Positions 12,991-38,460 of a stretch of 40,826 nucleotides of DNA are shown one piece after another. This stretch comes from Candidatus Thorarchaeota archaeon. GTDB lineage: Archaea > Asgardarchaeota > Thorarchaeia > Thorarchaeales > Thorarchaeaceae. The notes beneath the pieces were generated by a model. The model made no database searches. It was given only the letters and a program-made list of their open reading frames with translations, and had not been told where the DNA came from. Where the stretch lies: the NCBI GenBank assembly GCA_048882485.1, contig JBHLRP010000028.1:1-40826 (forward strand). The letters run 5' to 3'. How positions within the stretch are numbered: position 1 is the stretch's first letter; each line of letters opens with the position of its first letter. The translations under genes were made by a program, and so were the position numbers.

Positions 12991-15090
12991 GTGTCACACA
13001 TCTACAAGAAATTCGTCAATGACCGCGCAGCTGGGCTCATAGACAAGACGGCTCAGATTCGGAATTGCACCGTGATAGCACATATTGACCATGGGAAGAC
13101 TACACTCACCGATTCACTCATTGCATCATCTGGACTCCTCTCGAAGGAAGTAGCTGCTACTGCTCGACTCTTGGACTATGATATGATTGAACAAGAACGA
13201 GGAATCACGATAAAGGCGTCAGGCATTTCTCTTATTCACCATATGGATGGACTGGACTACCTCATTCATCTTATTGACACACCCGGCCATATCGACTTTT
13301 CAAGCCACGTAACAAGAGGGCTTCGACTCACTGACGGAGCTATTATTGTTGTTGATGCTATCGAGGGGATCATGGTCCAAACTGAAACTGTTACAAGACA
13401 AGCAATGAACGAGCTTGTGCGTCCAGTGTTGTTTGTCAATAAGGTTGATCGGCTCATCAAAGAGAAACGGTTGGATGCTAATCGTGTAGCAGAAGAGATC
13501 AACGGGACGGTTCGTGAATTCAACGCTATGCTGGGCAAGTATCTCGATGATGATACTCTAGAGAAGTGGGAGGTTTCTTTTAGCAAGTCATCACTGTGTA
13601 TCGGCTCGGCATTGGACAAATGGGGACTCGATGTGTCGGTCCTCAAGAATGCATCTGGTGGAAGTGATGTTACAGGAGACCTAGCTAGTGCGTTCATGGC
13701 GATACTCGAAGAAATAGTGTTAGCGTACTCCAAGGAGGAGCAAGGCATCCTGGCAGAGAAATATCCTGTTGCCGAAGTCCTGTTGGATTCGGTGGTTAAG
13801 ACCTGTCCGGATCCAACTACAGCTCAATCCTATCGACTTCCAGCATTCTGGACACCACAGGGCAACAAGCATGATAAGAGACTTCTTGAATCGAGAAGCA
13901 GTGGTCCAGCTGTTCTGCTGGTAGGAAACGTGCAGCCTGACAGACACGCCGGCCTTGTTGCGGCAGTCCGGGTGTTCGCAGGGACACTCAAGCGAGCCGA
14001 GCCTTTGACAAATCTCAGGACAGGAAAGGAAGGAAAGCCTCTCCAGGTTGGAATCTTCATGTCGAAATCGAGAGTCGCACTTCCCCAGGTCCCTGCTGGA
14101 AATCTTGCGTTCATCACAGGAGTCAAGGATATTGCTGTAGGTGACACTCTTGTAGCAAAGGGCACTGAAGGAGTATCTCCCATGATGGAGCTCGAATACC
14201 CCACAGAACCTGTTGTCACATATACAATTGAACCAAAGAAGCTGTCGCAGCTCAGTGAGATTCAGGAACCCATTGCACAGTATGCGATGACGGATCCTGC
14301 ATTAGATTTTGAAGTGAATCCGGAAACTGGGGAGATGCTTCTTTCGGGTGCGGGCGAGTTACACATCGAAGTGAGTATTGAAAAGCTAGCTCGACAGGGA
14401 ATCGAAGTCCTACTTGGAAAGCCAATGGTTCTACTAAAGGAGCAGATGACAAAAGATGGGACATCGTGCGCAGGAGGAAACGAATCGACTAGCATCTTTA
14501 CTGTCCAAGCAATCCTCATTGAAGAAGGAGTCAATGTCGAGGAGTACGGCACACTCCTAGACTCAGAGCCAATGGGGGGGTGCTATCTCATAGATTCCAC
14601 TGGGCAAATCAATCCCTATGGCGAAGAGCTGGAATGGATCAGAGAGGCATTCAGGACATTAATAGGAAGCGGGCCAGCTAGCGGCGAAAGACTACGACAC
14701 CTTGCAATTATTCTGGAGAAGGTGCAGCTACGATATGAGGCTCAAGAAACTTCTTGGAGAGATGTGACCATTCCGCTGATACAAGCCATGAGATGCAGCG
14801 TGGAATCTGGAGACCCTCAGGCCCTAGAACCATGGGTTAGACTTGAGATTAGCGCACCTGAAGAGCATGTTGGAGGACTTGCTGCAATTTTGGCAAGAAG
14901 AAAGGGGAGAGTCCATGAAATAAACTCTGATAGAACTCTATACCGGATAGATGCTGAGATTCCAGTACGCGAGTCATTCGGCCTTGCAAGGGAGATTAGA
15001 ACATCTACATCAGGTTGGGCATCATGGGGAGCAAAGGCTGGAGGATATAGAAGAGTCGGAGCGGACGATGAAGAGGAGCCAGTCTATTAG
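12991..15090 (+). CDS. Elongation factor 2 paralog (aEF-2p-like) lacking the diphthamide motif
   Basis: AHIDHGKTT, ERGITI, DTPGH, NKVD, GSAL, GELHIE, LEP...PEE, ESFG...IR..TSG. The domain IV tip reads LRYEAQETSWRDV instead of LHEDAIHRGPAQ. Likely start is GTG at 12991, after the preceding stop. Confidence 0.88.
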   Translation: MSHIYKKFVNDRAAGLIDKTAQIRNCTVIAHIDHGKTTLTDSLIASSGLLSKEVAATARLLDYDMIEQERGITIKASGISLIHHMDGLDYLIHLIDTPGHIDFSSHVTRGLRLTDGAIIVVDAIEGIMVQTETVTRQAMNELVRPVLFVNKVDRLIKEKRLDANRVAEEINGTVREFNAMLGKYLDDDTLEKWEVSFSKSSLCIGSALDKWGLDVSVLKNASGGSDVTGDLASAFMAILEEIVLAYSKEEQGILAEKYPVAEVLLDSVVKTCPDPTTAQSYRLPAFWTPQGNKHDKRLLESRSSGPAVLLVGNVQPDRHAGLVAAVRVFAGTLKRAEPLTNLRTGKEGKPLQVGIFMSKSRVALPQVPAGNLAFITGVKDIAVGDTLVAKGTEGVSPMMELEYPTEPVVTYTIEPKKLSQLSEIQEPIAQYAMTDPALDFEVNPETGEMLLSGAGELHIEVSIEKLARQGIEVLLGKPMVLLKEQMTKDGTSCAGGNESTSIFTVQAILIEEGVNVEEYGTLLDSEPMGGCYLIDSTGQINPYGEELEWIREAFRTLIGSGPASGERLRHLAIILEKVQLRYEAQETSWRDVTIPLIQAMRCSVESGDPQALEPWVRLEISAPEEHVGGLAAILARRKGRVHEINSDRTLYRIDAEIPVRESFGLAREIRTSTSGWASWGAKAGGYRRVGADDEEEPVY

Positions 15091-17384
15091 CTCCGAAGGT
15101 AGTATCTACGATTCATTACTTCGCCGAGCATGGAGAGGAGTCTTCTGTCAACCATTGAAATATCATCCATCATCCTCAGAGCACGGGAAATATTCGAGAA
15201 GACCGCATTGAGATAGGGCTTGGCTTCTACCATCTCAGACTGTTCTACCATCTGAAGATAAGCATCTGCGATTTTCATTAGGCCCAGCCAGTCATCAGCA
15301 AGAATGAACTGATACTGACCTCTATCGGCGCTTTCGGGGAATGTTTCGAATCTATCTCTGTCGATCACCGCATCATATTGATTCTCTAGAGCAAGAGCAA
15401 ATCGAAGTAGAACATCAGAAAGCGACACGCATGTTGCTTGAATGAACTCAGCGGATTCTGGAAATGCGGGTTCAACTACTCCTGCAGTTCGAAGTGCAAG
15501 AGCTGCGCTATATAGGCCAGTTGCAAGGTTGCTATAATCCCGATTCTCAAAGAAGGACTTCACTGTCTGCGCCAGAGCCGTCTGCCCCCTCCAGTACATG
15601 GCTAGAAGAGCATCAATCTCTTCGACTCTGGGAGTAACAGGGTTTTCAATCCTAGCTGAGGGTCCCAAGCTAATTGATTCCTGATTGAACTTTGCAGTTG
15701 ACAGAGCCTCCATCAGAATCCCAACCCTTGATAGATCGGACCTATGTGTGGTAAGGCTACTTGCACGGCTTTTCAGGACTGACCAAGACTCATTAAGAAA
15801 TGGAAGAACCAGGGATACCCCCTGAACGAAAATTGAATCATCCTGAACTCTGGCATCCGCTAGGAGTCTGTCAATATCATCTAGGAGACGCACGACCCTA
15901 GAAGGGAGCGTTTCCCCGTGGCGGAAAGCAATCCATACTACGTTATAGGTTGCAATCGCAACCTCAACAAACGCCCGGGAATCTGTAGGAAATAGGGGTA
16001 CGAACTGAACCAACACCTCACGTAGCGATCCTTGGGCTTCTTCTGAGTATTCAGCAGACCGCATCATGGATAGTGAAAGACCCAGCTTACTGCCCAGTAG
16101 CTCCAACTCAGAAACCCGACCCTTCTGATGAAGTTCTTCACGTATCTGAATAGCCCGCTGAAAGGCGGCTACTCCTGTGTCCCAAAACTCATCTGATTCA
16201 GTGCTCAGACAAACCCAGCCTAAGGTGTTCTCAGCTCTCGCCAAGTCTGCTGCCATATCATGACCTGATGATTCCATCTGTTCAAGAATGGTTTTGGCAC
16301 GTTCTAGATACTCAATACTCTTCGTTGTATTGTCATGGTCTGATAGAAGTCCATGTGCAAATCCAAGTCCAGCTAGAATTCTGAACAGGTTAAGTGATTG
16401 ATGAAAATCAGGCGCCTCAATCCGCTCATAGACTGCAAGCCCCTTTTCCAGGCGGTCTATTGCCTCTGGTACACCCTCTCTCCAACCATTCGCAAGTATA
16501 CTTGACCCGACAATGAGATGTGCTAGACCAAGATCGTCTTTTGTATCTGGAAAACGAATCCCTCTTTCCTCATACAGCTGCGCCGCTCTATCGCTGATAG
16601 CGCGCGCTTCTTCATGATGTACAGTATCATCGCGAGTTTCGTTTACTCCCAATTGAAGAACGACAGCTGCAAGCTTCTCTTTGTCTTCTTCGGCCTCAAC
16701 AGATTTCTCTAGGTCCAGAAGGATGTTCCTAGATTCCTGAAACATTCCTAGCTCTGTAAGTACACATGAATAGTTGAACATCGTTTCAAATAGCAGGTCC
16801 TGGTTGCCCATTCTGGCGGCAATCTTGGAGAGTCGGTTAAGCAGCAGCTCAGCACCAGCGAAGAATCCCTCTTTTATCAAGATGCTTGTGAGATAGTGAA
16901 CTTCATGAATCGCAAGAGCAGTGGAGGCTTCATGTCCGCGTGAGTGAATGGCATCAAGTGTCATTGATATCTCGTCAATAATGAAAGGCAAGAGAGGTCT
17001 CAGATTGAGATTCAAAGCAGATGTGACAGATTGAGATAGTTGGCCCAATATATCCAGCAATTGGGGAATTGCTTCAATATCAGGCAGTAGTTCCGTTTCA
17101 CTTCGACGGAAGCTGTTTGTGTATCGAACATCCAAGAGGGCTAGCATCTCTGGGAGGATACGATTCTCTTTGAATGACAAACGGACAGTCAATTCGGTGA
17201 GCTTAGCACTAGCCAAGCCAGGCCTTCGGAGGATAATCTCCTCAAAAACGCGCGCAATCTCAAATAATAGCTCGTTTTCAGTGGTGTTGCCTATTGCCAA
17301 ATTCTGAATCGCTGAGAGCCCATCATCAAGGGATAGCGATGCACATAGCACATCTCTCAGTGTCACAATCAGCAATGACTCCAC
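15087..17384 (-). CDS. Large alpha-helical (TPR-like) hypothetical protein
   Basis: 765-aa ORF, helical, with TPR-like segments (LARAENTLGWV...AAFQRAIQIREEL); GGAG RBS. Confidence 0.7.
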   Translation of the reverse strand: MESLLIVTLRDVLCASLSLDDGLSAIQNLAIGNTTENELLFEIARVFEEIILRRPGLASAKLTELTVRLSFKENRILPEMLALLDVRYTNSFRRSETELLPDIEAIPQLLDILGQLSQSVTSALNLNLRPLLPFIIDEISMTLDAIHSRGHEASTALAIHEVHYLTSILIKEGFFAGAELLLNRLSKIAARMGNQDLLFETMFNYSCVLTELGMFQESRNILLDLEKSVEAEEDKEKLAAVVLQLGVNETRDDTVHHEEARAISDRAAQLYEERGIRFPDTKDDLGLAHLIVGSSILANGWREGVPEAIDRLEKGLAVYERIEAPDFHQSLNLFRILAGLGFAHGLLSDHDNTTKSIEYLERAKTILEQMESSGHDMAADLARAENTLGWVCLSTESDEFWDTGVAAFQRAIQIREELHQKGRVSELELLGSKLGLSLSMMRSAEYSEEAQGSLREVLVQFVPLFPTDSRAFVEVAIATYNVVWIAFRHGETLPSRVVRLLDDIDRLLADARVQDDSIFVQGVSLVLPFLNESWSVLKSRASSLTTHRSDLSRVGILMEALSTAKFNQESISLGPSARIENPVTPRVEEIDALLAMYWRGQTALAQTVKSFFENRDYSNLATGLYSAALALRTAGVVEPAFPESAEFIQATCVSLSDVLLRFALALENQYDAVIDRDRFETFPESADRGQYQFILADDWLGLMKIADAYLQMVEQSEMVEAKPYLNAVFSNISRALRMMDDISMVDRRLLSMLGEVMNRRYYLRS

Positions 17385-17457
17385 GTTGGACTCTCCTATT
17401 CCAAACTCATCTCTTCGAGGAGTTTCATCGCTTTAAAGTCTTCACGGAAAGGGGTTG

Positions 17458-18168
17458 TCATTCTAGAACGAAGTCATTCCAGACTCTAGATGTGTCTGTG
17501 CCTCGCATTCGTTCCATTCTGACCTTGTAATTGGGTTGTTCACCTTCATCATCAATCTTGAACCGGAGGACTGCATCCGCCATGTAGGAAAATGTTGCAT
17601 AGGTCTTCTCTTCATGGACACCTTCCTCAAGAATAAACATGATACTATGAGAACTCTCTGTGACTCGGCCACTGAGCCTTTGGACTGCTCTTGGCATGGT
17701 AGCTGGATTAGAGTGAAGAATGAGCGTTGACAGACTATCAACAACAACACGAGCAACAACAAGCTCATCTAAGACCTCAGAAAGCACAATTCCTAGCTCA
17801 CTGATATCGTCAACCTTGGCGAGAGAATGAACAGTGCTAGACTTGGGAGCACCCATACGTTCGGAGTAGCCATCGATGAACACAAACTGACTAGAATGCT
17901 CAAAGTCATCAATGGACCATCCATGGCGGCTCATATCATTCCTAATAACTCTTGGTGAGACATCAGTTGTCACAAAGACTGCGGGGAATCCAAGCCTGAG
18001 TCCATCATAGAGAAAGGCTTCAGCGTAGGTTGTCTTCCCAGATCCCAAAGGACCAAGGAGAATGTATGAAACTTGAGTAAGCTGACCAAACTTGACAAGG
18101 TCCCCGATCATAGGCCGTGCAGTGGCCGGCGGGGGTTCAGTGCTTTTCGATTTCGTTTCTTCTCCCAA
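17458..18168 (-). CDS. Single-domain KaiC/RAD55-family ATPase with degenerate catalytic glutamates
   Basis: GPLGSGKT, VTTDVSP (EE absent), RVVVDSLS, FSYMADAV, ERMRGT. Confidence 0.85.
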   Translation of the reverse strand: MGEETKSKSTEPPPATARPMIGDLVKFGQLTQVSYILLGPLGSGKTTYAEAFLYDGLRLGFPAVFVTTDVSPRVIRNDMSRHGWSIDDFEHSSQFVFIDGYSERMGAPKSSTVHSLAKVDDISELGIVLSEVLDELVVARVVVDSLSTLILHSNPATMPRAVQRLSGRVTESSHSIMFILEEGVHEEKTYATFSYMADAVLRFKIDDEGEQPNYKVRMERMRGTDTSRVWNDFVLE

Positions 18169-18194
18169 TAGTCACGCCTCAAGTTCTATAGATT

Positions 18195-18941
18195 CTATAC
18201 TCCAGTACTGATTTCTGCTGGCCATACTCTAATGCCTTCATCCGTTATCCTCATTGAGTGGATTCGCGAGCTGTGTTTTGAACCTCTGAGTTTCAGTATC
18301 TCTATCGACCGCGACCTAGATGTTTCGCTAATCATCTCATTGTAGAGTACAATAACACCACTGGCCAAGAATGCTTCGATATCAAACACACCCAGACCAT
18401 CATGTTGTGCCGGAATCTCACTTGTCAGGATTAGTGTTGTACCTGCACGCGTTATATTGGCGGCGAGCTTGAAGAACTCTTCGCGGAGGATGTCACGACT
18501 CCGAAACTTGTAAGCCAGAATGGTAAGGGTATCAATCACTACCCTCTTGGCACCAAGCTTCTTCACATGATTGAGAATGATGGCTTCCAAGCCTGAGAGG
18601 TCGAAGCTTGGATACTCACCGATTTTCATCGGAGTGACCTCCTTCGAAGGAGACAGATCTACGATGGCCAGTTTCTTCTTCTTCACCAGTGCATCGAGGT
18701 CCATTCCAAATCGCATCATGTTTCTCTTGATTGAGATCGGAGATTCTTCTAGAGTCACAAGAACTCCTGCTTCATCATACTGGGTTGCACCATTATACAG
18801 GAACTGATTTGCCATGATACTCTTTCCTGTTCCTGCTCGACCTGCGATGAGGATTGTGTCGCCTTGTGGGAATCCTCCCTCAATTAGCTCATCCAATCCT
18901 GGAATCCCAGTCTTTACTCTCTCTATAGCGAATTCGCTCAC
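18195..18941 (-). CDS. kaiC: Single-domain KaiC-like ATPase resembling the CI domain
   Basis: RVKTGIPGLDELIEGGFP, GRAGTGKS, VTLEESP, DLSP...FDLSGL, RVVIDTL, IEILKLRGS.H, ITDEGIRVWP. Confidence 0.9.
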   Translation of the reverse strand: MSEFAIERVKTGIPGLDELIEGGFPQGDTILIAGRAGTGKSIMANQFLYNGATQYDEAGVLVTLEESPISIKRNMMRFGMDLDALVKKKKLAIVDLSPSKEVTPMKIGEYPSFDLSGLEAIILNHVKKLGAKRVVIDTLTILAYKFRSRDILREEFFKLAANITRAGTTLILTSEIPAQHDGLGVFDIEAFLASGVIVLYNEMISETSRSRSIEILKLRGSKHSSRIHSMRITDEGIRVWPAEISTGV

Positions 18942-19276
18942 TTTGATTCACCTCTCTTGGTTGCCACTTTCGCTCCCAGAATCATCTTCATTATCATATC
19001 AGGCTCTGGAATTCCCGTGACTGAAACACCACCAATCATTGTAGTTGGTAGTGCGAAGATTCCAAACTCTTCCGCAGCTTCGGGATTCTTACTCACATTA
19101 ATGACCTTCAGAGCGAAAATTCCTCCTCCGAAATCCGTTAGGGTTTCTCTCAGAACCTCTTCAGCTCTAGGGCAGAACGCACATGTGTCGGACTTGAATA
19201 AGACTACCTCGATCGGCTCGTCATCTTCTTCATCCTCCCCATTCTGGGAGTCCGTTGGTTCTATATCATTAGCCAA
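18938..19276 (-). CDS. Thioredoxin-fold protein with CxxC and KaiB-like sequence
   Basis: CAFCP motif; GIFALKVINVSKNPEAAEEFGIFALPT resembles KaiB [27 protein letters not shown] (recalled); 4-nt GTGA overlap with the kaiC-like gene. Confidence 0.8.
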   Translation of the reverse strand: MANDIEPTDSQNGEDEEDDEPIEVVLFKSDTCAFCPRAEEVLRETLTDFGGGIFALKVINVSKNPEAAEEFGIFALPTTMIGGVSVTGIPEPDMIMKMILGAKVATKRGESK

Positions 19277-19369: not shown

Positions 19370-19759
19370 TCATCGATACTTCAGTATCTTACGAATCTTG
19401 GTTGCCGCCTTGCCAACGGCTCTTGAATGATAGCGCACATTCCTAGGCATTATTGTCCCGAGTATCAATGCCTGAGTGCCCTGAGAAGAAATTCTTCTAA
19501 ACACCGCCTTGCCTTCTGAACATCGAACAGATATGTCCTTAGTCTCTCCAAGGGAGAGCTCATTTCTCACCCGTTCTACTGTGTCTGCAATATGGCCAGC
19601 CATCGCAGCTACCACATCAATATTGGTTGTGGGTGACACCGCATAGGCCATGACCAATCCATCATCTCTTGCAAGGACTGATGTTGTAAATCCGCCCTCC
19701 CTGTTCATCTCCTCTAACGTTTCGGTCAATGCTCGATAATCCGGACGCTCCGAGGTCAT
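19370..19759 (-). CDS. Roadblock/LC7 (MglB-like) domain protein
   Basis: SVLARDDGLVMA...DVVAAMAG...L.LGETKDISV; size and pattern typical of Roadblock. Confidence 0.88.
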   Translation of the reverse strand: MTSERPDYRALTETLEEMNREGGFTTSVLARDDGLVMAYAVSPTTNIDVVAAMAGHIADTVERVRNELSLGETKDISVRCSEGKAVFRRISSQGTQALILGTIMPRNVRYHSRAVGKAATKIRKILKYR

Positions 19760-19945: not shown

Positions 19946-20494
19946 ATGCCGAGTGAGTATCGCCTCAAGATCGTCATGTTGGGTGATGGTGCAGTAGGGA
20001 AGACAGCACTGACAATTAGATTCACCGAAGGAGGATTTGAGGCTGACTACAAGAGGACCATTGGCGCCGATTTCGCCCTCAAGGAGATTGAGCTAAAGGA
20101 CCTGGATGCCAATGTGACTTGCATTGTGTGGGATCTGGCCGGGCAGCCGCGTTTTGAATCAGTCCGCCAGGGTTTCTATCGAGGAGCTCGGGGAGGGCTT
20201 TTGGTATATGATGTGACTCGCCGTCGTACGTTTCTCAATATTGACAATTGGAAGAATGAATGCTTCGCAAATCTTGGAAATCCAATTCCACTCATAGTTG
20301 TGGCTAATAAGGTGGACCTTGAAGAGAGCCGCGTAGTTTCTAGAGAGGAAGGAGAGGAGTACGCCAAGAAGCACAACTTCCTGTATGTTGAGTCTAGTGC
20401 ACTCACGGGTGAGAATGTACAGGAAACGTACGCTACTCTTTGCAGAAACATTCTAGCTGAGGGAAAGGCAAAGGCGAAAAATAGCAAAGGGTAA
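19946..20494 (+). CDS. Rab-like small GTPase
   Basis: GDGAVGKT, TIGADF, WDLAGQ, FYRGA, NKVD, ESSAL; no C-terminal prenylation Cys. Confidence 0.95.
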   Translation: MPSEYRLKIVMLGDGAVGKTALTIRFTEGGFEADYKRTIGADFALKEIELKDLDANVTCIVWDLAGQPRFESVRQGFYRGARGGLLVYDVTRRRTFLNIDNWKNECFANLGNPIPLIVVANKVDLEESRVVSREEGEEYAKKHNFLYVESSALTGENVQETYATLCRNILAEGKAKAKNSKG

Positions 20495-20499
20495 TGCTG

Positions 20500-21627
20500 C
20501 TATGTGCGTCTAGGTGTTCCTTTCAAAAGCCCCAGCGCTCGCTTGCATTGCCACAGGATGTAGAACACTCGCTTATCTCTCAGAACTTCATCTTCATATT
20601 GACTTGAGATGTCATTGAGCTTCTTTTCAAGCTCCGCTTGGCGGCTCTTTTCAGTGTCAGCTTCAATCTCAGATAGTAGGCTCTTGAATGGAGCGAGCAT
20701 GGCTTCCATCTCTTTAACCTCCCATCGTGTGATTGCACCTGAACCATCTGCCGTAAGAAATGCATCTGTATCAGGATACCACTCGATTCCATCGATCTCA
20801 GTGACTGTCCTACCCTCGCCCTCTATAGTATATGAGTCAGTAATCCAAACGAAAAGCTCCTTTTCACTTGACCCTGATGCCAAATACTTGCCATCCCAGC
20901 TGAAGGATAAAGCTCGAACCTCACCCTCATGCCCTATCAAGGTTCGCTCTGGTTTGAATGAGTCACCTTCTGTCTTCCAAATGATGATACTGTGGTCAGA
21001 GGATCCTGAAGCCATACCTTGTCCATCTCGTGTGAATTTCACAACATGCACTGCTGTCCGATGATCCTTGAGGCGGCCCAGCAGCTGCCCTCTATCGGCA
21101 TCCCAAACGGCTATTGTGCCATCAACTTCCCCTGAGATAATTCGCTTCCCATCAGGCGACCAGTCACATGTCACTACGTAAAGGGAATGCCCCTTGAGTT
21201 GATTGATCTCAGTGCTATTCGAAACATCCCAAATGCGTAGAGTCGTGTCACCACTCCCTGAAACAAGTCGGGTACCATCAGGAGAGAATGCAAGTGCCAA
21301 GACGGGATAACTATGACCTTCTAATTTCCCGATTAGATCTCCTGTTCGGATATCCCATAGCTTGACGACTCTATCAACACCGCCAGTAGCAACAACATCA
21401 CCCTGAGGACTGAAAGCGATAGATGTGCACAGGAATTCATCCTGTATTCGTTGCATCTCTTCGCAGCTCTGTGCGTCATAAAGTCTGATACTTCGGTCCT
21501 GCATGGCTGCAGCGAGCATCCTTCCAACCTTATTCATCGCAAATCGACGCGTGATCTCTGAACCACGTTCAGCCTGAGGTTTCATTACCCTTGGTTGAAG
21601 GAAAAGGGAAAGCTCTCTCTGCTCCAT
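20500..21627 (-). CDS. WD40-repeat (7-blade beta-propeller) protein with helical C-terminal tail
   Basis: Seven repeats, e.g. GHSYPVLALAFSPDGTRLVSGSGDTTLRIWD; ATG at 21627 after GGTG (alternative GTG at 21636). Confidence 0.93.
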   Translation of the reverse strand: MEQRELSLFLQPRVMKPQAERGSEITRRFAMNKVGRMLAAAMQDRSIRLYDAQSCEEMQRIQDEFLCTSIAFSPQGDVVATGGVDRVVKLWDIRTGDLIGKLEGHSYPVLALAFSPDGTRLVSGSGDTTLRIWDVSNSTEINQLKGHSLYVVTCDWSPDGKRIISGEVDGTIAVWDADRGQLLGRLKDHRTAVHVVKFTRDGQGMASGSSDHSIIIWKTEGDSFKPERTLIGHEGEVRALSFSWDGKYLASGSSEKELFVWITDSYTIEGEGRTVTEIDGIEWYPDTDAFLTADGSGAITRWEVKEMEAMLAPFKSLLSEIEADTEKSRQAELEKKLNDISSQYEDEVLRDKRVFYILWQCKRALGLLKGTPRRT

Positions 21628-21748
21628 GTAGCGCACCTTTCAAGCGGGTTCTAGCCACGCCGACCTGAGGCAGTGCTAAAAATGTTATGAAAGGCTCACT
21701 TAGCTAAGTCATCACAATAAGTATTAAGACAGGCGCAAACGAGCACGA

Positions 21749-22966
21749 ATGGCGAGGCCTAGAATGTCAGACAAAGATGACAAGACATCTACTCCACAAA
21801 CCGATAGCGATCCAGTGCGTGGCTTGAAGAGAGCCGTGGGACGACTGTTCAAACCAAAAGAGGACAAACTCAATAAGGCGCTATCAACTATTTCATCGAT
21901 TCAAGCCTGCAAAGACGCAGCTATAACTGGGGAGGAAGAAGTCAGACTTCTTGCAGTCTGCAGACTAGGAGACTATGGCTCGAAGTCATTTGACACTCTT
22001 GATATAACCCTGAATGATGAGAGTAGAGTCATTCGAGCTATGACGGCAGGAGTGTTCGCTTCTATAAAAGATAATAGAGCGATACCCATCCTTAAGGCTC
22101 ATGCATCTGACGATGATGAGATGGTGAGAGAGGCAATTGGTTTTGCTTTGGGATGGTTAGGAAATCGCGGTCATGATGTTGATGATGAACCCCTAATACC
22201 TGACGAGATACCTGAGAAAGAGCAGATAGTTGAGTCTACACCAATTAGAACAAGTGATGATATTCTAGTGACAAATGGGTACCAAGTATCTGACACCAAG
22301 TTGCTATTCAGGAGCACCATTGCCAACAAATCTACTGAAAGAATCTCGAACGTGACCATCAGAATTATGTCATTCCCGGCTGACAGCCTTCTAGCACCGT
22401 ATGGAAGTACGCAGATTATCCCTTCAATTGGACCAGGAGAATCCGATTCAGTCGAGTTCGAATTCTTTGTTAATGCAGAAGCAATTGAGGGAGAAATCGT
22501 ATCATCTGTGATTTTCCTGAATGGTGATGATGAAAAAATCGCAGCCAAATCAGGAATTTGCTTCATCAGGTCAATCTATTCGCAGATTGAACCGTTTGAA
22601 ATGACAGCAGATGAGTTTCAAGCAATGAAAAAGGGGAAAAGCACTTGGAATCGGGAACATGTCATCGAGGTCGAGGCGAAGACGCTCTATAAACTAGTGA
22701 AAAAACTGGCCAATCGATGTAATCTCCATTCTTTCAGAGCAGAATCGACAACGAAAGAAGGAATGCTAATGGGACTTGTCGCTGGTGCGGGGATAGGCAA
22801 GTTCAGCGACACCCGGTTGGCCGTCACAATAACACTCGTTGGGAAGGTCGGTGAAGGAATCTCAAAGGTCAGAATTGATGTGATGTCAGATGACTCGGAA
22901 TTGATTCAGATAGCTGCAAGCGAGTTCTTTGAACGACTGCAAATTGAGATCCAAGCTATTGAATGA
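21749..22966 (+). CDS. HEAT-repeat protein with Ig-like beta-sandwich and platform-like C-terminal domain
   Basis: PBS-type HEAT repeats (VRLLAVCRLG, DDDEMVREAIGFALG); Ig-like segment (FRSTIANKSTERISNVTI...SIGPGESDSVEFEF); alpha/beta tail starting IEPFEMTADEFQAM. Confidence 0.75.
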   Translation: MARPRMSDKDDKTSTPQTDSDPVRGLKRAVGRLFKPKEDKLNKALSTISSIQACKDAAITGEEEVRLLAVCRLGDYGSKSFDTLDITLNDESRVIRAMTAGVFASIKDNRAIPILKAHASDDDEMVREAIGFALGWLGNRGHDVDDEPLIPDEIPEKEQIVESTPIRTSDDILVTNGYQVSDTKLLFRSTIANKSTERISNVTIRIMSFPADSLLAPYGSTQIIPSIGPGESDSVEFEFFVNAEAIEGEIVSSVIFLNGDDEKIAAKSGICFIRSIYSQIEPFEMTADEFQAMKKGKSTWNREHVIEVEAKTLYKLVKKLANRCNLHSFRAESTTKEGMLMGLVAGAGIGKFSDTRLAVTITLVGKVGEGISKVRIDVMSDDSELIQIAASEFFERLQIEIQAIE

Positions 22967-22972
22967 CATAAC

Positions 22973-23776
22973 TTACTGACCTAGAAGCTTCAATAGGGTC
23001 ACTTCGCTGAGAAGACCTAGCTTTTCTGCAATGCCTTCAACGGCAAGGAGCGCAGGCGAATTGTTGGGCAGGTCAAAAACAGGCTTGCCCAAATAATTCA
23101 GTTCTGCTACTTTATCATCGTTTGGAATCATGCCCGCAAGAAAGAGATCATTCTCCTCAAGTCCATTTGAAACAGCTTCAACAAGATTGGATGGAATCCG
23201 ATTGCCGATCACTACCAGCTTCTTGAAGTCAATATGCACTTCTTTCGCGAGGTCTCTTATTCGCAAGGCTGCTTCAAAGGCAGCTCGGGAGGAGTCAATG
23301 ACTATAATGAGAATGTCGACATTTCGATTAGTGCGACGACTGAAATGCTCGAGACCTGCACTCATATCAAGTAGAGTAATCTCATAATTCAATGTCAGAG
23401 TGTCGAGAATCTGGGTGAGGATTCTGTTGACATAGCAATAGCATCCTTCACCTTCTGTGCGACCCATTGCCAAGAAATCGTATCGATCGCCTTCAATGAG
23501 AGCCTCGAAGATTTCCCCTTCAAGAATGTCTTGTTTCGCTGCAGAGGCAGGTAGAGTTCCATCATCAATGTTCTTCCGCATCCTGGTGGCAATTTCTCCA
23601 ACTGATGCCGGAACATCAACTCCCAAGGCTCGAGGGAGATTCATCACAGGATCTGCATCGACTAGAAGCAATGACCGTTGGGTCTTCTCTACAATAATTC
23701 TGGATAGGAGTCCGGCGGTAGTGGTCTTTCCAACGCCACCCTTTCCGGATACTGATATCACTAGACGCTCTTTCAT
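22973..23776 (-). CDS. cooC: CO dehydrogenase/ACS nickel-insertion ATPase (CooC/AcsF)
   Basis: SGKGGVGKT, VDADP, EGEGCYC, DMSAGLEHFSR; ATG at 23776. Confidence 0.92.
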   Translation of the reverse strand: MKERLVISVSGKGGVGKTTTAGLLSRIIVEKTQRSLLLVDADPVMNLPRALGVDVPASVGEIATRMRKNIDDGTLPASAAKQDILEGEIFEALIEGDRYDFLAMGRTEGEGCYCYVNRILTQILDTLTLNYEITLLDMSAGLEHFSRRTNRNVDILIIVIDSSRAAFEAALRIRDLAKEVHIDFKKLVVIGNRIPSNLVEAVSNGLEENDLFLAGMIPNDDKVAELNYLGKPVFDLPNNSPALLAVEGIAEKLGLLSEVTLLKLLGQ

Positions 23777-23838
23777 TCTTCTTACTCCCAATAGGAAAGA
23801 GGGGCATTTTGCCCCTATGACCATTTAGGTATGGTCTC

Positions 23839-25254
23839 TCACTCTTCTTTCCATTTGCCTGCTTGGAGATACTTTGGTATTCCACTGGAGTCTTGTGGAC
23901 CGACCTTAACAGTCCAACCAGATGCCTCTTCGGTTTCACCACTAATTCTAGCAGCCATTCCTGGACTAATGAGAATCTTGTGCTTGACCTTATCAGCAAT
24001 CTTGGTTTCTTCAAGGGTTTCCGCCACCCTCTCTGCCGTCAGCTTTCTACCAGCCACAGCGGATTGGACACTCATTCCTTCTGTATCTACAACCACCAGA
24101 TAGGCATTCACTCCTGCCTGTTTGATATCACTCTCAACTGTGAAGTAAGTGAGTGCAAAGTTGGTTGTATACATCACAGGAGAATCTGGCCCCACATCAC
24201 CAAATTCCTGAAGACCAGCCTCTACCGCAACAGGCTTCACAGGGTCTGTGTAAAGGTTGCTCCTGAGGAATGTAAGTGGCAGGTTTGTCCACATGTCCAA
24301 GCTATGGACGATAATTGCATCAGAGTACCTGACAATCATTGCCGCGGATGTAAGAACTTCATCCCATTTGGTTAGCTCTGGTGCTGCTCCCTCCTTATGG
24401 TCAGCCCAGACTGAAATAGGTGTGGCAAGCAATGGATAGCCCACGAGCTCGTTCTCCTCAATAGTCGCAGCCCTTCTGAGCTGTGTAAAATTGTCAACGG
24501 TAGTACCTAGACCAGCTCTTGAAGCTGTGCCTGGATCGAGTACAAGCTCTTCTACCCCCATAGCCCTCAGTGTATTAACAAGAGTAGCTAAGTCGTCAAG
24601 GCCGCTTGGTGCATATGCCACCAAAGGGAGATTGTGCTTCACAGCAATATCACCCACTTGAGACCAGGTGTCCAATGTCGCTGCATAAAGCAGCGGTCGC
24701 TTGTCAGCAATTGCACTTGCTGCTGCAGCCAGCATCTCAGGATTAAGCGAGCACAAGATAATGGGCCAGTCGGTTAGCTCAGCCACCTTCTTTGCAGTTT
24801 TGGCGAATATCTGCGGATCTTGTGAGACCCCTCGAAGGGCAATTCCATCTAATTGGAGATTCTGGCCAATATACACGTACGTCCAGTCCTCAATCGCCTT
24901 TACCCTATGAGCAAGTTTCTCGCCCTCGAGTGTATCATCCACATCAACAAAGAATGATATTGGATTGGAGTATCTGAGATCATGCCTATACAAGACCAGC
25001 TTTCCACCAATAGATGCTGCTTTTTCGCCGGCTCCAATCACAACTTCTCTGACTGGGGGACGAATGAGGTCTTCTAGCTTGGTCAGCTTCTTGGCATACT
25101 GAGCCTCTTTATAGAGAGGAGTGCATGCTGCAAGCTTCACCGTGTATTCGGCAAGCTTTGTGGCAAAGGCCATGCAGTTGGCTTCTCCGCACTCCTGGCA
25201 GTTGGTACCGGGTAATAGGGGGTAAATGTCCAATGGACCTGGAAGCTTTGCCAT
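23839..25254 (-). CDS. cdhE: ACDS complex gamma subunit (corrinoid FeS protein, large)
   Basis: LPGTNCQECGEANCMAFA...C FeS motif; YTDP.KP..V; TTNFALTYFTVESD; VGPQDSSGIP. Confidence 0.97.
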   Translation of the reverse strand: MAKLPGPLDIYPLLPGTNCQECGEANCMAFATKLAEYTVKLAACTPLYKEAQYAKKLTKLEDLIRPPVREVVIGAGEKAASIGGKLVLYRHDLRYSNPISFFVDVDDTLEGEKLAHRVKAIEDWTYVYIGQNLQLDGIALRGVSQDPQIFAKTAKKVAELTDWPIILCSLNPEMLAAAASAIADKRPLLYAATLDTWSQVGDIAVKHNLPLVAYAPSGLDDLATLVNTLRAMGVEELVLDPGTASRAGLGTTVDNFTQLRRAATIEENELVGYPLLATPISVWADHKEGAAPELTKWDEVLTSAAMIVRYSDAIIVHSLDMWTNLPLTFLRSNLYTDPVKPVAVEAGLQEFGDVGPDSPVMYTTNFALTYFTVESDIKQAGVNAYLVVVDTEGMSVQSAVAGRKLTAERVAETLEETKIADKVKHKILISPGMAARISGETEEASGWTVKVGPQDSSGIPKYLQAGKWKEE

Positions 25255-26448
25255 CTAGGTCCCCTCCGGTATTTCGATTGTGGTCCAGTCTGCATATTCT
25301 GCAATCGTTATCGTTCGCCTCTCTTGTAGCCAATCAATAAGGTCATGGACTGTCTTCATTGCTGCAGGATGCATCATCATGAAGAGGTCATTGCCAGCTA
25401 ACAGGAGTGATAGTGCAGTCACACTCTCCCATATTGGGCCACGAAGTTCCCTCGGTCCGAGTTCTGGTGCCTTGAGCCAAGCTTCTCTAGCAGCCCAAGC
25501 ATTTGTTGTGCCTGAACTGATGGGATATTGCAATTCATTATCACCCAATAGCCCCGCCAGACGCATCCTTTGCATCATAGTGAACGCATATTCAAGACCG
25601 TACCCAAGTGCAGCAGTAGTGGGATCGATTACTATCTGATCTGGTGTAAGCCACTCAATCAGCCTCCGATTCAATTCCTTCTGTTCGTTGATGTCGAGCG
25701 AAGTCCATGACAAGACAATCTGTTCATGCTCCTTCGCAGCCACAGCCACAGGTTCATAGACATCGATTGTTGCAGAGCAGAGCAGGGTTCGTTCACCTTC
25801 ACATACCTCTGCAGCTTTAGCAAGAACGGGTCCATCCTTCTCAGGGTCGCCTGCAGAACCAATGAGCACGGGAACCTTGACTGCCTGTAGAACCTCTTCA
25901 ACAGTCTTTGCGGCCTTTTGAGGTGAAGTGTTTCCCAGTTGTCTGTCTGTACTGATGAGGTGTATTGTTATCACGTCAGCTCCGAACTTATTCACGCAAA
26001 GCTTTGCCCATTCCGCGGGATCATCCAGTACCTCCCTGTAGTGAGTCTTGACTGCTTTCGCCAGCGGAATTGGCATGTCAAAGACGTCAGCAGCAATAAT
26101 GGGCGGGTTCTTTGGTGGTGCTTGAAACAAATCCCATGCAGGTGCAGTATGACCGCCAATGGTCACTGTATTGCTCCTTGATCCGCCCTCCTTCTTGGTA
26201 GCCCCAATTGTAATCTCCCGAATCACACCAGGATACTCACCAAGGGGCGGCTTGAACTGGGCAGGAATAAGTGACTTTGGCATCTCAATTGCAGCCTTGG
26301 CTGCAGCCTGCGCTAGTCGTTGGACCATGGGACGAAGAGCGAGCTTCAGTTCGTCTACCTCAATTGTGACGTGCTCCAGCTCCAACTCGGCGAAATCACC
26401 AAAGATGTCGTCTAGCGACTGTCCTCTTCCTTCCTCATGGGACGTCAT
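25255..26448 (-). CDS. cdhD: ACDS complex delta subunit (corrinoid FeS protein, small)
   Basis: TIGAT..EGGSR, DPAEWAK, DPTTAALGYGLEY, TNAWAAREAW, MMMHP. Confidence 0.97.
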   Translation of the reverse strand: MTSHEEGRGQSLDDIFGDFAELELEHVTIEVDELKLALRPMVQRLAQAAAKAAIEMPKSLIPAQFKPPLGEYPGVIREITIGATKKEGGSRSNTVTIGGHTAPAWDLFQAPPKNPPIIAADVFDMPIPLAKAVKTHYREVLDDPAEWAKLCVNKFGADVITIHLISTDRQLGNTSPQKAAKTVEEVLQAVKVPVLIGSAGDPEKDGPVLAKAAEVCEGERTLLCSATIDVYEPVAVAAKEHEQIVLSWTSLDINEQKELNRRLIEWLTPDQIVIDPTTAALGYGLEYAFTMMQRMRLAGLLGDNELQYPISSGTTNAWAAREAWLKAPELGPRELRGPIWESVTALSLLLAGNDLFMMMHPAAMKTVHDLIDWLQERRTITIAEYADWTTIEIPEGT

Positions 26449-27851
26449 TTCTTCTTTCCACCCTTCCCTGTTCCGGTCTTTCTGATGATTACTTTCTCGG
26501 CGTAGATCTTGGCATTCTTGAAGATAATCTCAAGCCCTCCGCCAACTCCACCCACCATAGCGGTCAGTTCGCCAGGCACTGCAACGTAGTCATCCGAAAC
26601 CTCAGCCAGAGCAGTTTCCTCTTCTTCCGCAATCTCCACCCATCGCTCCACAATAGGATGACTTTTTTCCTTGAGGAAGGTCTTCAAATCCGATATGGTC
26701 ATGACTTCATTCTCTGTTGGAATCTTGTCTCTGATGTCCTCAGGCATGAACTCATAGACTCGTTGCTTGATTGAATCAGGCATCCATACTACTCTATTGT
26801 AGCCACCATCAACCTGCAAGAACCTTGGTGAACGCATATACTCTATGGACAATCCATGGAATCCTGGTACCTGTCGGCCGCCCGCAGTTGAGTCCGCCAT
26901 ACTAGAGAAAGGCAGTCCGTTCACAGTTTCTCCTTTGAAGTCTCTATGAACCACCCCTAGGCCATCCACTTCAGGAATCACGAAAGCGATTGCTTCGAAG
27001 CAGCCGCAGCTCGTGTGAGGTTTGTCAAAGGCGCTGTACAAAGCCACTGAGGTGACTTTGCCGAGTGACTTCTCTGCATAAAGCTGATTCACTCCTGTAT
27101 ATTCGCCTGTGTACTCGTCTAATGTGTCGCCTTTGGGGATTGCATAGAGTGGGCCCTTAGGATCCACCCGCGCAGCTGCTCGACCATCAAACCAGCTAAT
27201 GGCTCCGCAGTTTGCGTACCTCTGTGGAGTAATGGTGCACACATGAGTCGGAGCAAACGACTGACACAATGAACATCCGTAGAAAGTGTCAACGTCTGCG
27301 TCACTCAAGCCTCTAGCACGCGCATCCCTCTCATTGTATCTGTTTATGGCCTCATCATATCGTTCAGCAATCTTCTCAGAATCAGTGAAGAATGTCACCT
27401 GTATCTTCTCGATGATGTTCATCTCACTCTTGAAAAGCCGAATCAGGACCTTACCCAGATGTTCTAGGGCGTTGAATCCCTTCTCGAAAGACTTCTTGCT
27501 GAGCCGAATCCAGATGTCGTATCGCTGGTTTAGATGCATCATGCCTTCTACAAAGTTCACGTACTCGTGAATTCGTCGTTCAATGACGCCCTCAAGGTCA
27601 GGTTCGATCTCCTTCCCCGCAACCTCCACTAGAATGCCAAAAGGATGATAGCTCCCTTCCTCCATGTCCTTGAGATCCGGGCCGATGATTGTGACCTTCT
27701 CATCCTCAATCTCGCCCATCTCTCTTGCCAAAGCCAGCTCGAACTTCTGTTCCATCTTCGGACCGCCGAGCTCAACAAACATGTCTTTTCCTCGGACTCG
27801 TTCGCCTTCGTATACTACGCCTACATCTACTGGTATATCTTCAAATGACAT
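26445..27851 (-). CDS. cdhC: ACDS complex beta subunit (acetyl-CoA synthase)
   Basis: YEGERVR, MHLNQR, FYGCSLCQSFAPTHVC, HTSCGCFE A-cluster ligands. Confidence 0.97.
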   Translation of the reverse strand: MSFEDIPVDVGVVYEGERVRGKDMFVELGGPKMEQKFELALAREMGEIEDEKVTIIGPDLKDMEEGSYHPFGILVEVAGKEIEPDLEGVIERRIHEYVNFVEGMMHLNQRYDIWIRLSKKSFEKGFNALEHLGKVLIRLFKSEMNIIEKIQVTFFTDSEKIAERYDEAINRYNERDARARGLSDADVDTFYGCSLCQSFAPTHVCTITPQRYANCGAISWFDGRAAARVDPKGPLYAIPKGDTLDEYTGEYTGVNQLYAEKSLGKVTSVALYSAFDKPHTSCGCFEAIAFVIPEVDGLGVVHRDFKGETVNGLPFSSMADSTAGGRQVPGFHGLSIEYMRSPRFLQVDGGYNRVVWMPDSIKQRVYEFMPEDIRDKIPTENEVMTISDLKTFLKEKSHPIVERWVEIAEEEETALAEVSDDYVAVPGELTAMVGGVGGGLEIIFKNAKIYAEKVIIRKTGTGKGGKKK

Positions 27852-27852
27852 C

Positions 27853-28401
27853 TCATTTTCCTCCTCCTACGAATTCTACGATTTCATCTAACACTGTGTG
27901 CCACTGCTTCTCCTTCATATTAGGAAAGGACCAATCTGCATGCGGTTGATAGTAGCGCCCCAGGGAAATTGTAGTCAGATGGGTCCCAAAATTCATTGTC
28001 GCAGATAGCAGTGTCCATTGCATGTAGTATGGGATTCCAAAGACCATGAGGAGATCGTGGGGACCCTTGCCAGTTGGGCCAGTCCACGTCTCATCCTGAA
28101 GATAGAATGCGACTTCCATAGCACCCATAGACTTGGCACCAGTAAAGCCCTTCTCAATGAAGGCCTTGATGGCTCCACCAGTGGCAATGACAGGCATCTT
28201 GCCTGCCTCTGCCAGAGCAATTGCGTAATCTATCATGTCGCCCTTTCCATGCTTCTCGTCCACAGCATCTGATCCCACCACAAGGAGTGGCTTCTTGGTC
28301 ATCTTGAAAGACCTTTTCAGTTGATCCACTTTTGTGAGTGACTTGGCACTATCAGGTCCGCAAATCTCACCAGTCTGCCATGGTACGGGTCTCATAACCA
28401 T
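27853..28401 (-). CDS. cdhB: ACDS complex epsilon subunit
   Basis: KKPLLVVG, W.G..GKG.HDL, YYQPHADWSFPN; lies between cdhA and cdhC. Confidence 0.93.
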   Translation of the reverse strand: MVMRPVPWQTGEICGPDSAKSLTKVDQLKRSFKMTKKPLLVVGSDAVDEKHGKGDMIDYAIALAEAGKMPVIATGGAIKAFIEKGFTGAKSMGAMEVAFYLQDETWTGPTGKGPHDLLMVFGIPYYMQWTLLSATMNFGTHLTTISLGRYYQPHADWSFPNMKEKQWHTVLDEIVEFVGGGK

Positions 28402-30743: not shown

Positions 30744-30929
30744 GGTTCATACAAACCCTGTGGCTAATATGCTGCCCTGCAAGAAAGGAGCATAATAAGC
30801 TTATGAATAGGCAACGGATTTTGCCATTCGGTATCGGAATCAATCGTTAACCATACACGCGCTGATTGTTTCAGTAGATTGTATGACGTTGGTTTGAACA
30901 TTCAGAGTGTAACCTAATTGAACGTGTGT

Positions 30930-31727: not shown

Positions 31728-31730
31728 TGT

Positions 31731-32966: not shown

Positions 32967-32974
32967 ACTATCAC

Positions 32975-33433: not shown

Positions 33434-33710
33434 GTCTACGGGTCTCCCTTGACTGGTGCATAAACACCAACCATTGCCTGTTGGAACCCAGATTTCTCCC
33501 AAAAAGAATGATGCGGTATGGCACAGAGCTTATTGAGATGACCATTTCCCAAGATATCAGAGTCTTCTTATCATGGAATGTTTGCTCTGAATCCTAAATG
33601 CTCACACTTATACTGGATAGTAAGAAGCTCATCAAGTTGAAAGACGAAAGTAACACAAACAATCAGATAACACTCAGCCGTAGTGTCTTTGACATACCTA
33701 GGTGGACATT

Positions 33711-36146: not shown

Positions 36147-36150
36147 CAAC

Positions 36151-37893: not shown

Positions 37894-38460
37894 TTAGGTC
37901 AGACCACCTGCTTCTAGGATTTTAATAGCTAGTTCGAGGAAAGAAGCCTCAACATTATGGCCGGTCTTTGCCGAGGTTTCTAAAAAGCTCGTATGAACAC
38001 CGCGATCTCTAATCCGACCTGCCATAGCTTCGCCCTCCGCTGTGGTGACAATGGTCTGCTGCATCACTGGGTTGTCCTTGAACTGGTTTCTGAGGTCAAT
38101 CTTATTGCCTATCAGAACGATTGGTATCTTCTTACCTGCATTGTTCCAGCACTCGTCAAGCCAGTTTTCGATGTTGTCAAATGATGTACGTTCAACAGTG
38201 GAATAGACAGCCAATGCACCTTGTGCACCCCTATAGAATGTAGAACGTACATTCTTGAAGTGCTCTTGCCCGGCAAGATCCCAAATTTGAATGCTGACGT
38301 CATGTCCGCCCTCAAGGCTCATCTTCTTGACAGCGAAGTCAGCTCCAATGGTGATCATATAATTGGCTTTGAAGCCCTCACCCATATACTGTCGTCTAAG
38401 ACTTGTCTTCCCTACCGAGCCGTCGCCCATTAGGATCACTTTGAAGAGTGCTGTGACCAT
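37894..38460 (-). CDS. Rab-like small GTPase
   Basis: GDGSVGKT, TIGADF, WDLAGQE, FYRGA, GNKID, ETSAK; no prenylation motif. Confidence 0.95.
   Translation of the reverse strand: MVTALFKVILMGDGSVGKTSLRRQYMGEGFKANYMITIGADFAVKKMSLEGGHDVSIQIWDLAGQEHFKNVRSTFYRGAQGALAVYSTVERTSFDNIENWLDECWNNAGKKIPIVLIGNKIDLRNQFKDNPVMQQTIVTTAEGEAMAGRIRDRGVHTSFLETSAKTGHNVEASFLELAIKILEAGGLT

Follow-up and report, generated by a model that had tools for sequence, protein, structure and literature searches.

In this study, we analyzed a 40,826-nucleotide stretch of DNA from a Candidatus Thorarchaeota archaeon (assembly GCA_048882485.1, contig JBHLRP010000028.1, positions 1 to 40,826; hereafter the window) and focused on a gene at 21749..22966 of the forward strand, which encodes a 405-residue protein consisting of a HEAT-repeat stalk, a short hinge, and a C-terminal module that may be related to the appendages, or ears, of adaptins and COPI subunits. 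This HEAT-hinge-ear protein is most likely a lineage-specific docking adaptor on a switch formed by Rab-like GTPases and a Roadblock protein that are encoded beside it. We give a probability of about one half to the reading that it is a soluble scaffold protein and accessory docking adaptor of this Rab/Roadblock switch, whose ear-type module came from the copying of a local domain; nothing in our data indicates that it builds a membrane coat. The sequence-level architecture of the protein, its conservation, its position in the locus, and its pattern of gain and loss are observed directly; the ear fold, the partners, and the adaptor activity are inferred. The gene and the parts of its product are located as follows.

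21749..22966, + strand: HEAT-hinge-ear protein ('HEATapp'), 405 aa; translation probably begins at residue 6 (21764)
21881..22168, + strand: HEAT stalk, residues ~45-140, ~3 repeats (Pfam HEAT_2; PDB matches)
22169..22243, + strand: acidic, Pro-containing hinge, residues ~141-165 (alignment variability; composition)
22244..22576, + strand: beta-rich domain, residues ~166-276, probable Ig-like sandwich (Chou-Fasman; weak Pfam matches)
22577..22966, + strand: alpha/beta tail, residues 277-405 plus the stop codon, probable TBP/helix-grip-like platform (PF14806)

The protein has 79 homologs of similar length, labelled as HEAT-repeat or hypothetical proteins of Thorarchaeota or Promethearchaeota, and 43 full-length orthologs from the genomes of other species were collected, none with an internal stop codon; the gene is therefore not a chance open reading frame (ORF). 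An alignment of 56 of the 79 homologs (alignment A1) shows that the second Met (residue 6) is the start in most orthologs. The HEAT repeats proposed by an earlier, sequence-only reading of this DNA are present throughout the family, with HEAT_2 matched in all 56 members, and HEAT_2 (residues 62-134, E 1e-7) is also the sole significant Pfam match of the 405-residue protein. The stalk is ~95 residues long and contains ~3 repeats of the PBS-lyase/alphaRep type. When profile A1 was searched against PDB, the best matches of residues 57-146 were alphaRep, MTH187, YibA, and deoxyhypusine hydroxylase (E down to 8e-30); the PBS-lyase-type HEAT proteins alphaRep, MTH187, and YibA match the stalk but have neither hinge nor ear. 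No adaptin or COP chain was retrieved for the stalk at E≤10 by this family profile, and the trunk matches of the protein in Pfam at E≤10 were HEAT_2 and HEAT only, with no solenoid trunk of the Adaptin_N type. The acidic, Pro-containing linker that had been described after the stalk (residues ~141-165) is the most variable and indel-rich stretch of alignment A1, and has the character of a flexible hinge between trunk and appendage, which here is only ~25 residues long; a regular-expression scan found no clathrin-box-like motif in it. Ahead of the HEAT repeats, a basic segment at residues ~22-40 (21812-21868, + strand) is conserved with the consensus R-R-L-K-K-A-M-K...K-P. It has the hydrophobic spacing of an amphipathic helix and might serve as a binding peptide or as a helix in contact with the membrane.

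The GTPase, WD40, and HEAT-containing ORFs lie where the sequence-only reading had placed them (ORF list, Pfam), and together with further genes they make up the locus listed below, in which Rab1 and Rab2 are short names for Rab-like GTPases 1 and 2.

15087..19276, - strand: thioredoxin-like gene, two KaiC-type ATPases, and a 765-aa helical protein (Pfam; conserved beside Roadblock)
19370..19759, - strand: Roadblock/LC7 protein (LAMTOR2-like), divergent from GTPase 1 (Pfam Robl_LC7 1.8e-6)
19946..20494, + strand: Rab-like GTPase 1, 182 aa (Pfam Ras 2e-50; Thor-Rab ortholog)
20500..21636, - strand: seven-blade WD40 protein, 378 aa from a GTG start (Pfam WD40)
21628..21748, no strand: divergent spacer between the WD40 and HEAT-ear genes, with A/T-rich boxes (read from the sequence)
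37894..38460, - strand: Rab-like GTPase 2 (Pfam Ras 3e-48; 85% identity to its counterpart in G366, another genome of the same genus)

We retrieved the loci of all 43 full-length orthologs, with up to 6 kb on either side, and mapped the neighbor genes of the window onto them. An array of the order 765-aa protein (-), KaiC (-), KaiC (-), thioredoxin (-), Roadblock (-), Rab1 (+), WD40 (-), ear gene (+), and Rab2 (-) surrounds the ear gene in 43 of 43 loci, whose orthologs are 28-95% identical. The conserved core of the locus is the Roadblock protein, the two Rab-like GTPases, the WD40 protein, thioredoxin, and the two KaiC ATPases. Linkage to the WD40 gene, which the sequence-only reading had put forward as a check of its proposal, is conserved: WD40 is the divergent neighbor within 600 bp in 36 of the 43 loci, and the remaining loci comprise one with WD40 at 1.3 kb, one without upstream DNA, and five from the window's own genus without WD40. 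In these five, Rab1 sits 90-145 bp upstream of the ear gene on the same strand. Over all 43 loci, Rab1 precedes the ear gene on the same strand in 39, and in three of the remaining four the available DNA is too short. Roadblock was located in 34, with short contigs accounting for most of the others. The second Rab-like GTPase, ~41% identical to Rab1, is convergent at ≤430 bp downstream in 30 of the 43 loci, and CooC replaces it downstream of the ear gene in eight loci of the own genus. The window itself has a CooC-like ATPase and CODH/ACS genes downstream of the HEAT-ear gene (ORFs, Pfam).

Several loci depart from this arrangement. In other genera Rab2 directly adjoins the ear gene in convergent orientation, but in the window a block of ~15 kb (cooC, cdh/CODH-ACS, and further genes; 22973-37867) parts the two. 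This block is absent at this place from G366, and the Rab2 of our genome is 85% identical to the GTPase that follows an ear-gene remnant in G366. Locus L058 (G341) shows no Rab1 between WD40 and Roadblock at a 55% identity cut, with the DNA present; locus L067 (G392) has no Roadblock, thioredoxin, or KaiC upstream despite 6 kb being present; and in locus L042 (G352) WD40 and the ear gene are separated by an additional ~1.3 kb.

Both linked GTPases carry a Ras-superfamily G domain that is closest to Rab. GTPase 1 matches Pfam Ras at 2e-50 vs Arf at 2.9e-10, and GTPase 2 matches Ras at 3e-48 vs Arf at 3e-11. The best PDB match of GTPase 1 is 'Thorarchaeota Rab' 7EZB (also 7EZD and 7EZE; E 1e-84, residues 1-175), followed by eukaryotic Rabs, and GTPase 2 matches the Thor-Rab entry at E 2.4e-37; GTPase 1 is thus the ortholog of Thor-Rab and GTPase 2 a paralog. 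The Roadblock protein of the locus is distinct from the crystallized Thor-RB, and its best PDB matches are LAMTOR2/MP1-interacting protein (~1e-4).

The distribution of the gene is narrow. At E≤1e-20 the full-length protein was found in 60 of 85 other genomes of its own taxonomic family, a count that includes some paralog-only matches, and in none of 314 genomes of other Asgard families. The WD40 ortholog is single-copy in 68 of 86 family genomes and present in all 16 genera. Among 20 WD40 loci without a full-length ear gene, 19 have Rab2 and WD40 adjacent and co-directional with nothing between them, and a hidden Markov model (HMM) of the ear-protein family gave no match in these 19 at E≤10. 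The 20th, in G366, has a 105-aa ORF between WD40 and Rab2 (L098:6369-6686, + strand) that contains the platform part only (HMM positions 292-392, E 2.6e-33) and is an apparent remnant of the ear gene. One genome, G340, has no ear gene although its sister genome has one.

We also mapped these presences on a tree of the neighbor genes (Roadblock, thioredoxin, both KaiC proteins, and Rab1; quick IQ-TREE run, LG+G4), in which 52 of 63 loci were kept and 11 were dropped for having less than 70% of columns filled. Ear-gene presence requires at least four changes on this tree and WD40 presence at least two; at least two losses of WD40 left the ear gene in place. As each partner can go missing without the other, the ear gene is an accessory that was inserted into an older Rab/Roadblock/WD40/KaiC array and lost again several times, and not an obligate leg of the trio of GTPase, WD40 propeller, and HEAT protein that the sequence-only reading had proposed. 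Two of the observations count against an adaptor of the array: the ear gene is absent from nine of the 16 genera, which keep the WD40 array, and in five genomes with the ear gene (completeness 77-92%) the WD40 ortholog was found nowhere at E≤1e-90.

The same patterns could be explained if the gene were a passenger whose product is a scaffold for protein binding in general; it would have landed between WD40 and Rab2, been kept by inheritance, and be functionally unlinked to the GTPase array. Because all orthologs lie in one taxonomic family, to which they are confined, the conserved position may be plain synteny. The gene is dispensable, as the changes on the tree, its absence from G340, and the remnant in G366 illustrate; it evolves much faster than its neighbors, with between-genera identity of 28-42% vs 55-85%; and it is transcribed opposite to the Rab2-WD40 pair that it interrupts. 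However, the ear gene occurs at no other place, and array genes adjoin it in every one of the 43 loci. Its position in the array was held in the own genus despite the 15-kb cdh insertion on its other side, and was also held where WD40 was deleted, with the ear gene directly behind Rab1. We regard a passenger gene as a possible but somewhat unlikely explanation, and prefer the docking adaptor of the Rab/Roadblock switch.

Turning to the C-terminal module of this candidate adaptor, its 240 residues are well conserved in alignment A1. The motif that opens the alpha/beta tail, to which the sequence-only reading had drawn attention, contains invariant P282, W300, R302, E303, and H304, and E284 is conserved in at least 90% of sequences. 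A crude Chou-Fasman profile of 33 orthologs predicts strands only (six or seven) at residues 165-276 and the order a-a-b-b-b-b-a at residues 277-405 (a for helix and b for strand), and this order agrees, by a weak method, with a sandwich followed by an alpha/beta tail. The beta-rich domain gave weak matches to the beta-sandwich families DUF11, DUF7490, NPCBM_assoc, and Transglut_C, and Alpha_adaptinC2 matches one of ten orthologs at the sandwich position (E 0.21).

The module is probably an ear of the adaptin/COPI type, as several indirect comparisons of its sequence suggest. In a Pfam scan at E≤10, PF14806 (Coatomer_b_Cpla, the model of the beta-COP appendage platform) ranks third by frequency among the families, matching 30 of the 56 members (best E 7.1e-5); it also matches six of ten orthologs from diverse genera (best E 6.8e-5). 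In three of these six, positions 14-124/125 of its 128 are covered, which corresponds to the entire alpha/beta tail. A six-frame scan of the 86 family genomes with PF14806 gave 34 matches at E≤10, 18 of which lie in the C-terminus of an ortholog; the orthologs supplied the top match (25.8 bits, E 2.2e-5) and six of the top seven. In the reverse direction, a profile of the C-terminal module only (A4, 33 orthologs) was searched against 177,635 PDB sequences and reached beta-COP at ranks 5-6 with E 0.4 (9qpq_H, residues 815-883 of 953; 5a1u_G, residues 830-898 of 968). Residues P282, T286, E289-F290, M293, W300, and N325, all conserved in the motif, fall on identical residues of beta-COP in this alignment, so that the tail motif matches the start of the beta-COP platform, in agreement with the motif likeness that had been noticed by eye. 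The conserved W300 may be the counterpart of the ligand-binding Trp of adaptin platforms. Moreover, an ESM-Atlas feature search with the modules of the window protein and of a 41%-identical ortholog placed an unnamed archaeal cluster at the top (243 aa, 0.95), and the next named clusters were the ears of alpha-adaptin, beta2-adaptin, gamma-COP, beta-COP, and AP-3 (0.81-0.87, 159-174 of 256 features), scores which, being below 0.9, are leads only according to the tool's own statement. The ESM Atlas contains no structure model for the window protein or for ortholog P0056.

A number of results speak against an ear, and would be expected if the C-terminal 240 residues had some other beta plus alpha/beta fold and the likeness to beta-COP were a chance 'EF...M...W' helix. 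All adaptin/COP matches are sub-threshold: with a Pfam cut-off of 32.7 bits for PF14806, the best matches reach 25.8 bits in the genome scan and 23.3 bits with hmmscan, and that of the window protein has 14.2 bits (E 0.09) and covers profile positions 14-74 only. Phosphoglucomutases of the same genomes match the same part of the profile (positions 18-69), reaching 19.6 bits in the genome scan and 17.2 bits with hmmscan, and because they score as high, short PF14806 matches of the size seen in the window protein are noise. In the PDB search with A4, AdoMetDC stands above beta-COP (E 0.015 vs 0.4). The whole-family profile A1 and the paralog profile A2 retrieved HEAT proteins or noise only from PDB, and no adaptin chain was retrieved by the family, paralog, or module profiles. 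The sandwich-specific models are likewise unmatched, with none of 12 Coatamer_beta_C matches (PF07718, the beta-COP sandwich) in the 86-genome scan falling in an ortholog; the same holds for all 22 matches of B2-adapt-app_C (PF09066, the beta2-adaptin platform). Nevertheless, the beta-COP matches are reciprocal, PF14806 is covered end to end in the three orthologs mentioned above, and the match falls in the C-terminal appendage of beta-COP. The language-model neighbors agree for two divergent orthologs, and the AdoMetDC match is a 38-residue local stretch in the enzyme of one organism, for which reason we dropped AdoMetDC as an identity of the C-terminus. A fold other than an ear is, on balance, quite unlikely.

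Other candidates were rejected in the course of this comparison. A Roadblock or longin fold for the tail was dropped, as the profile shows no helix between strands 2 and 3 (a crude profile and hence a weak test). A second PF14806 'family' of 450-480-aa ORFs turned out to be the phosphoglucomutases, which are false positives and served as the noise control; the phosphoglucomutase-family ORFs at L077:1784-3229 (- strand) and L078:1772-3127 (- strand) and their relatives score 14.6-17.2 bits and are a useful false-positive benchmark.

The closest relatives of the probable ear are found in Thorarchaeota themselves. An exhaustive search of representative sequences with the HEAT-ear protein returned 1437 proteins at E≤0.001, and among the best 150 of these, 65 match residues ~145-400 only, as a rule close to the C-terminal end of proteins that are 314-1521 aa long. 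These module paralogs carry N-terminal SBBP or LVIVD propellers, beta-helix/NosD, LRR, PKD, or TSP3 domains, and are laid out with a hydrophobic segment, then the module, and then often a Zn ribbon. The named ones are from Thorarchaeota, plus one from Lokiarchaeota. As the ear is nearest to these Thorarchaeial paralogs, a local domain shuffle is indicated, and the pattern is in keeping with a single fusion of HEAT repeats to a docking module of Thorarchaeia. Adaptin families are absent among the 25 most frequent of 269 Pfam families in the 65 paralogs, which is a further point against an ear. A profile search for methanogen relatives of the module, with the 8000 best word-sharing candidates scored, gave 60 matches, all of Thorarchaeota-type proteins, and no sequence link from the module to the published Meth_adaptin/Makarova accessions emerged from the profile search.

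The only further relative in the same genome is a platform-only 216-aa ORF on contig C31 (L101:4904-5554, + strand). It begins with a hydrophobic segment, its platform-like domain matches the module profile at E 2.5e-10, and it has no Pfam match; two secreted or anchored proteins are encoded next to it. In addition, genus g12 has a family of ~620-aa proteins (L074:1509-3371, L075:1369-3231, and L076:1456-3327) with many CxxC Zn-ribbon units, an alpha/beta domain, and a last Zn ribbon. This family accounts for 12 of the 22 PF09066 matches, which are weak and cover positions 17-108 of 112, and its C-terminal domain is weakly similar to the ear platform (hhalign P 5e-4, probability 31%, three sequences).

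We propose the following scenario for the origin and function of the HEAT-hinge-ear protein. The module would be a copy of the domain that forms the presumed cytoplasmic end of Thorarchaeal receptor-like proteins, in which a propeller, beta-helix, or LRR domain is followed by the hydrophobic segment, the module, and the Zn ribbon. In one Thorarchaeial family, such a copy may have been joined to HEAT repeats, giving a chain in which a short, flexible, acidic hinge connects ~3 ordinary repeats with a putative beta-sandwich and alpha/beta platform. The new gene would then have been inserted, in opposite orientation, between WD40 and Rab2 of an older array of Roadblock, Rab1, WD40, Rab2, thioredoxin, and two KaiC genes. 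Its product would serve as an accessory docking adaptor of the GTPase switch, with the HEAT or the ear end binding a GTPase, the WD40 protein, or another array component, and a conserved pocket of the ear around the invariant W300 (W-N-R-E-H) may bind partner proteins.

The sequence-only reading had gone further and placed an appendage protein in a coat-like gene cluster. Its appendage part is supported, though only indirectly, by the stalk, hinge, beta, and alpha/beta layout, the sub-threshold but reciprocal likeness to beta-COP, and the ESM-Atlas neighbors, whereas the coat-like cluster is not supported, given Rab-type GTPases, ~3 ordinary HEAT repeats, a WD40 protein without a solenoid, and a WD40 gene and ear gene that are separable. 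A corresponding proposal would be that the ear protein, the WD40 protein, and a small GTPase form a primitive coat or cargo adaptor, akin to an ancestor of the AP complexes, COPI, or the BBSome. In its favor, the order solenoid, hinge, and ear occurs in one chain as in adaptin/COPI large subunits, the platform most closely resembles the one in beta-COP, and propeller and GTPase genes are conserved neighbors. Recruitment of eukaryotic coats uses Arf/Sar-type GTPases, but both linked GTPases are of the Rab type by Pfam and PDB and have neither an amphipathic N-terminus nor a lipidation Cys. No prenylated Cys motif was seen at the C-terminus either, there being no Cys in the tails of the 59 GTPase orthologs examined; Thor-Rab likewise has no C-terminal Cys according to the accessible text of Tran et al. 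2024.

The other components are equally unlike those of a coat. The HEAT part of ~95 residues is of the PBS-lyase type and not an adaptin trunk. In protocoatomer proteins, propeller and solenoid share one chain; here, the WD40 protein (Pfam E 6.9e-52, five significant stretches) has a ~60-aa helical C-terminal tail after the blades but no solenoid, and the sole solenoid is the separate HEAT stalk. The seven blades that had been claimed for it were counted by eye from the repeat pattern. No mu or sigma subunit genes are among the 16 window ORFs scanned (the genome itself was not searched for them), and no ESCRT families (Vps4, ESCRT-III, Vps28-C, steadiness box) were detected in the HEAT-ear protein or in these 16 ORFs. 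The ear gene persists in five genomes without WD40, nine of 16 genera keep WD40 without it, and the ear is closest to lineage-specific paralogs. A primitive coat is therefore very unlikely. More far-fetched still is the notion that the precursor of adaptin/COPI large subunits has a living relative in this protein, which would be a minimal solenoid-hinge-ear adaptor that sorts or clusters membrane proteins of Thorarchaeota together with the Rab-like GTPases, Roadblock, and WD40: restriction to one family, repeated loss, fast evolution, and local paralogs as nearest relatives speak for a domain shuffle within this lineage rather than for an ancestral adaptin. If it were true, the 'trunk + ear' design would predate eukaryotes, and candidate cargo would include the receptor-like proteins that have the same ear on their presumed cytoplasmic side.

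Vesicle-coat adaptors are a eukaryotic hallmark, and a single archaeal chain of stalk, hinge, and probable ear encoded beside a crystallized Rab-like GTPase offers a concrete test system, in which one may ask what the ligands of an archaeal ear are and whether their binding depends on the GTPase state. Compared with the beta-COP appendage, the tail of the HEAT-ear protein similarly follows helical repeats, a hinge, and a beta-rich domain and, in three orthologs, matches PF14806 end to end, always below the curated threshold; unlike in beta-COP, PF07718 is unmatched, the trunk has ~95 residues instead of hundreds, and no other COPI subunit is encoded near the gene. With the AP-2 alpha and beta2 appendages (PF02883, PF02296, PF09066), it shares a similar, probable two-subdomain layout and the named ESM-Atlas clusters at 0.84-0.87, but PF09066 is unmatched in the orthologs and no adaptin chain appeared in the PDB searches.

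Ear modules in Asgard archaea have already been published. According to the accessible parts of these papers, Liu et al. (10.1101/2020.10.19.343400) described Asgard proteins in which Vps28/Vps23 is fused to C-terminal domains from subunits of adaptin and COPI. Makarova et al. 2024 (PMC10936438) described 'adaptin appendage' regions of IG and TBP domains across archaea, assigned them to the last archaeal common ancestor, and reported one archaeal 'adaptin appendage' protein that consists of the module and a Zn ribbon. The available text of Eme et al. 2023 states that ear-like and trunk-like pieces of Asgard archaea are 'not fused to each other'. The module described here is therefore comparable to these archaeal adaptin appendages (Liu 2020/21; Eme 2023; Makarova 2024) in putative domain class and in phylum, as far as their accessible text goes. 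The published Asgard ears often carry Zn ribbons, as do the paralogs here, in which the module is followed by a Zn ribbon. They are, however, described in those parts as fused to Vps28/Vps23, longin, TPR, or GOLD and discussed with ESCRT, whereas here the probable ear is joined to a HEAT stalk and encoded in a Rab/Roadblock/KaiC array.

In the portions of the literature that were accessible, we saw no description of a single chain that combines a HEAT stalk with an ear, and the supplementary tables of Liu (asCOG), Eme, and Makarova may list the family. In the accessible text of Tran et al. 2024 on Thor-Rab, this locus, its WD40 protein, and the ear protein are not discussed, and 'WD40' and 'gene cluster' have zero occurrences. 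Likewise, the available text of a 2026 structural survey (PMC12962969) contains no occurrence of adaptin, appendage, coatomer, or COPI, and that of another 2026 survey (10.64898/2026.10.28.762692) names 'AP gamma adaptin' as well as HEAT/ARM clusters that are adaptin-like, with zero occurrences of 'appendage'.

We also scanned the neighbors of the ear gene for DPF/DPW, FxDxF, WxxF, and clathrin-box motifs, and the only notable match was a W-x-x-F in the second KaiC (17458-18168, - strand). This C-terminal Trp-x-[Asp/Glu]-Phe is conserved in nearly all of 52 loci, whether or not they have an ear gene. As it is kept both with and without the ear gene, it does not co-vary with it, and the motif was dropped as a candidate ligand of the ear.

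Finally, the divergent spacer between the WD40 and HEAT-ear genes is exactly 121 bp, as the sequence-only reading had given it, with the WD40 ATG at 21627 (residue 4 of the ORF) and the HEAT start at 21749. It measures 112 bp with the WD40 GTG start, and ~136 bp if the HEAT protein starts at residue 6 like most orthologs in the 56-sequence alignment. To judge from its sequence, the spacer (21628-21748) is a putative promoter region.

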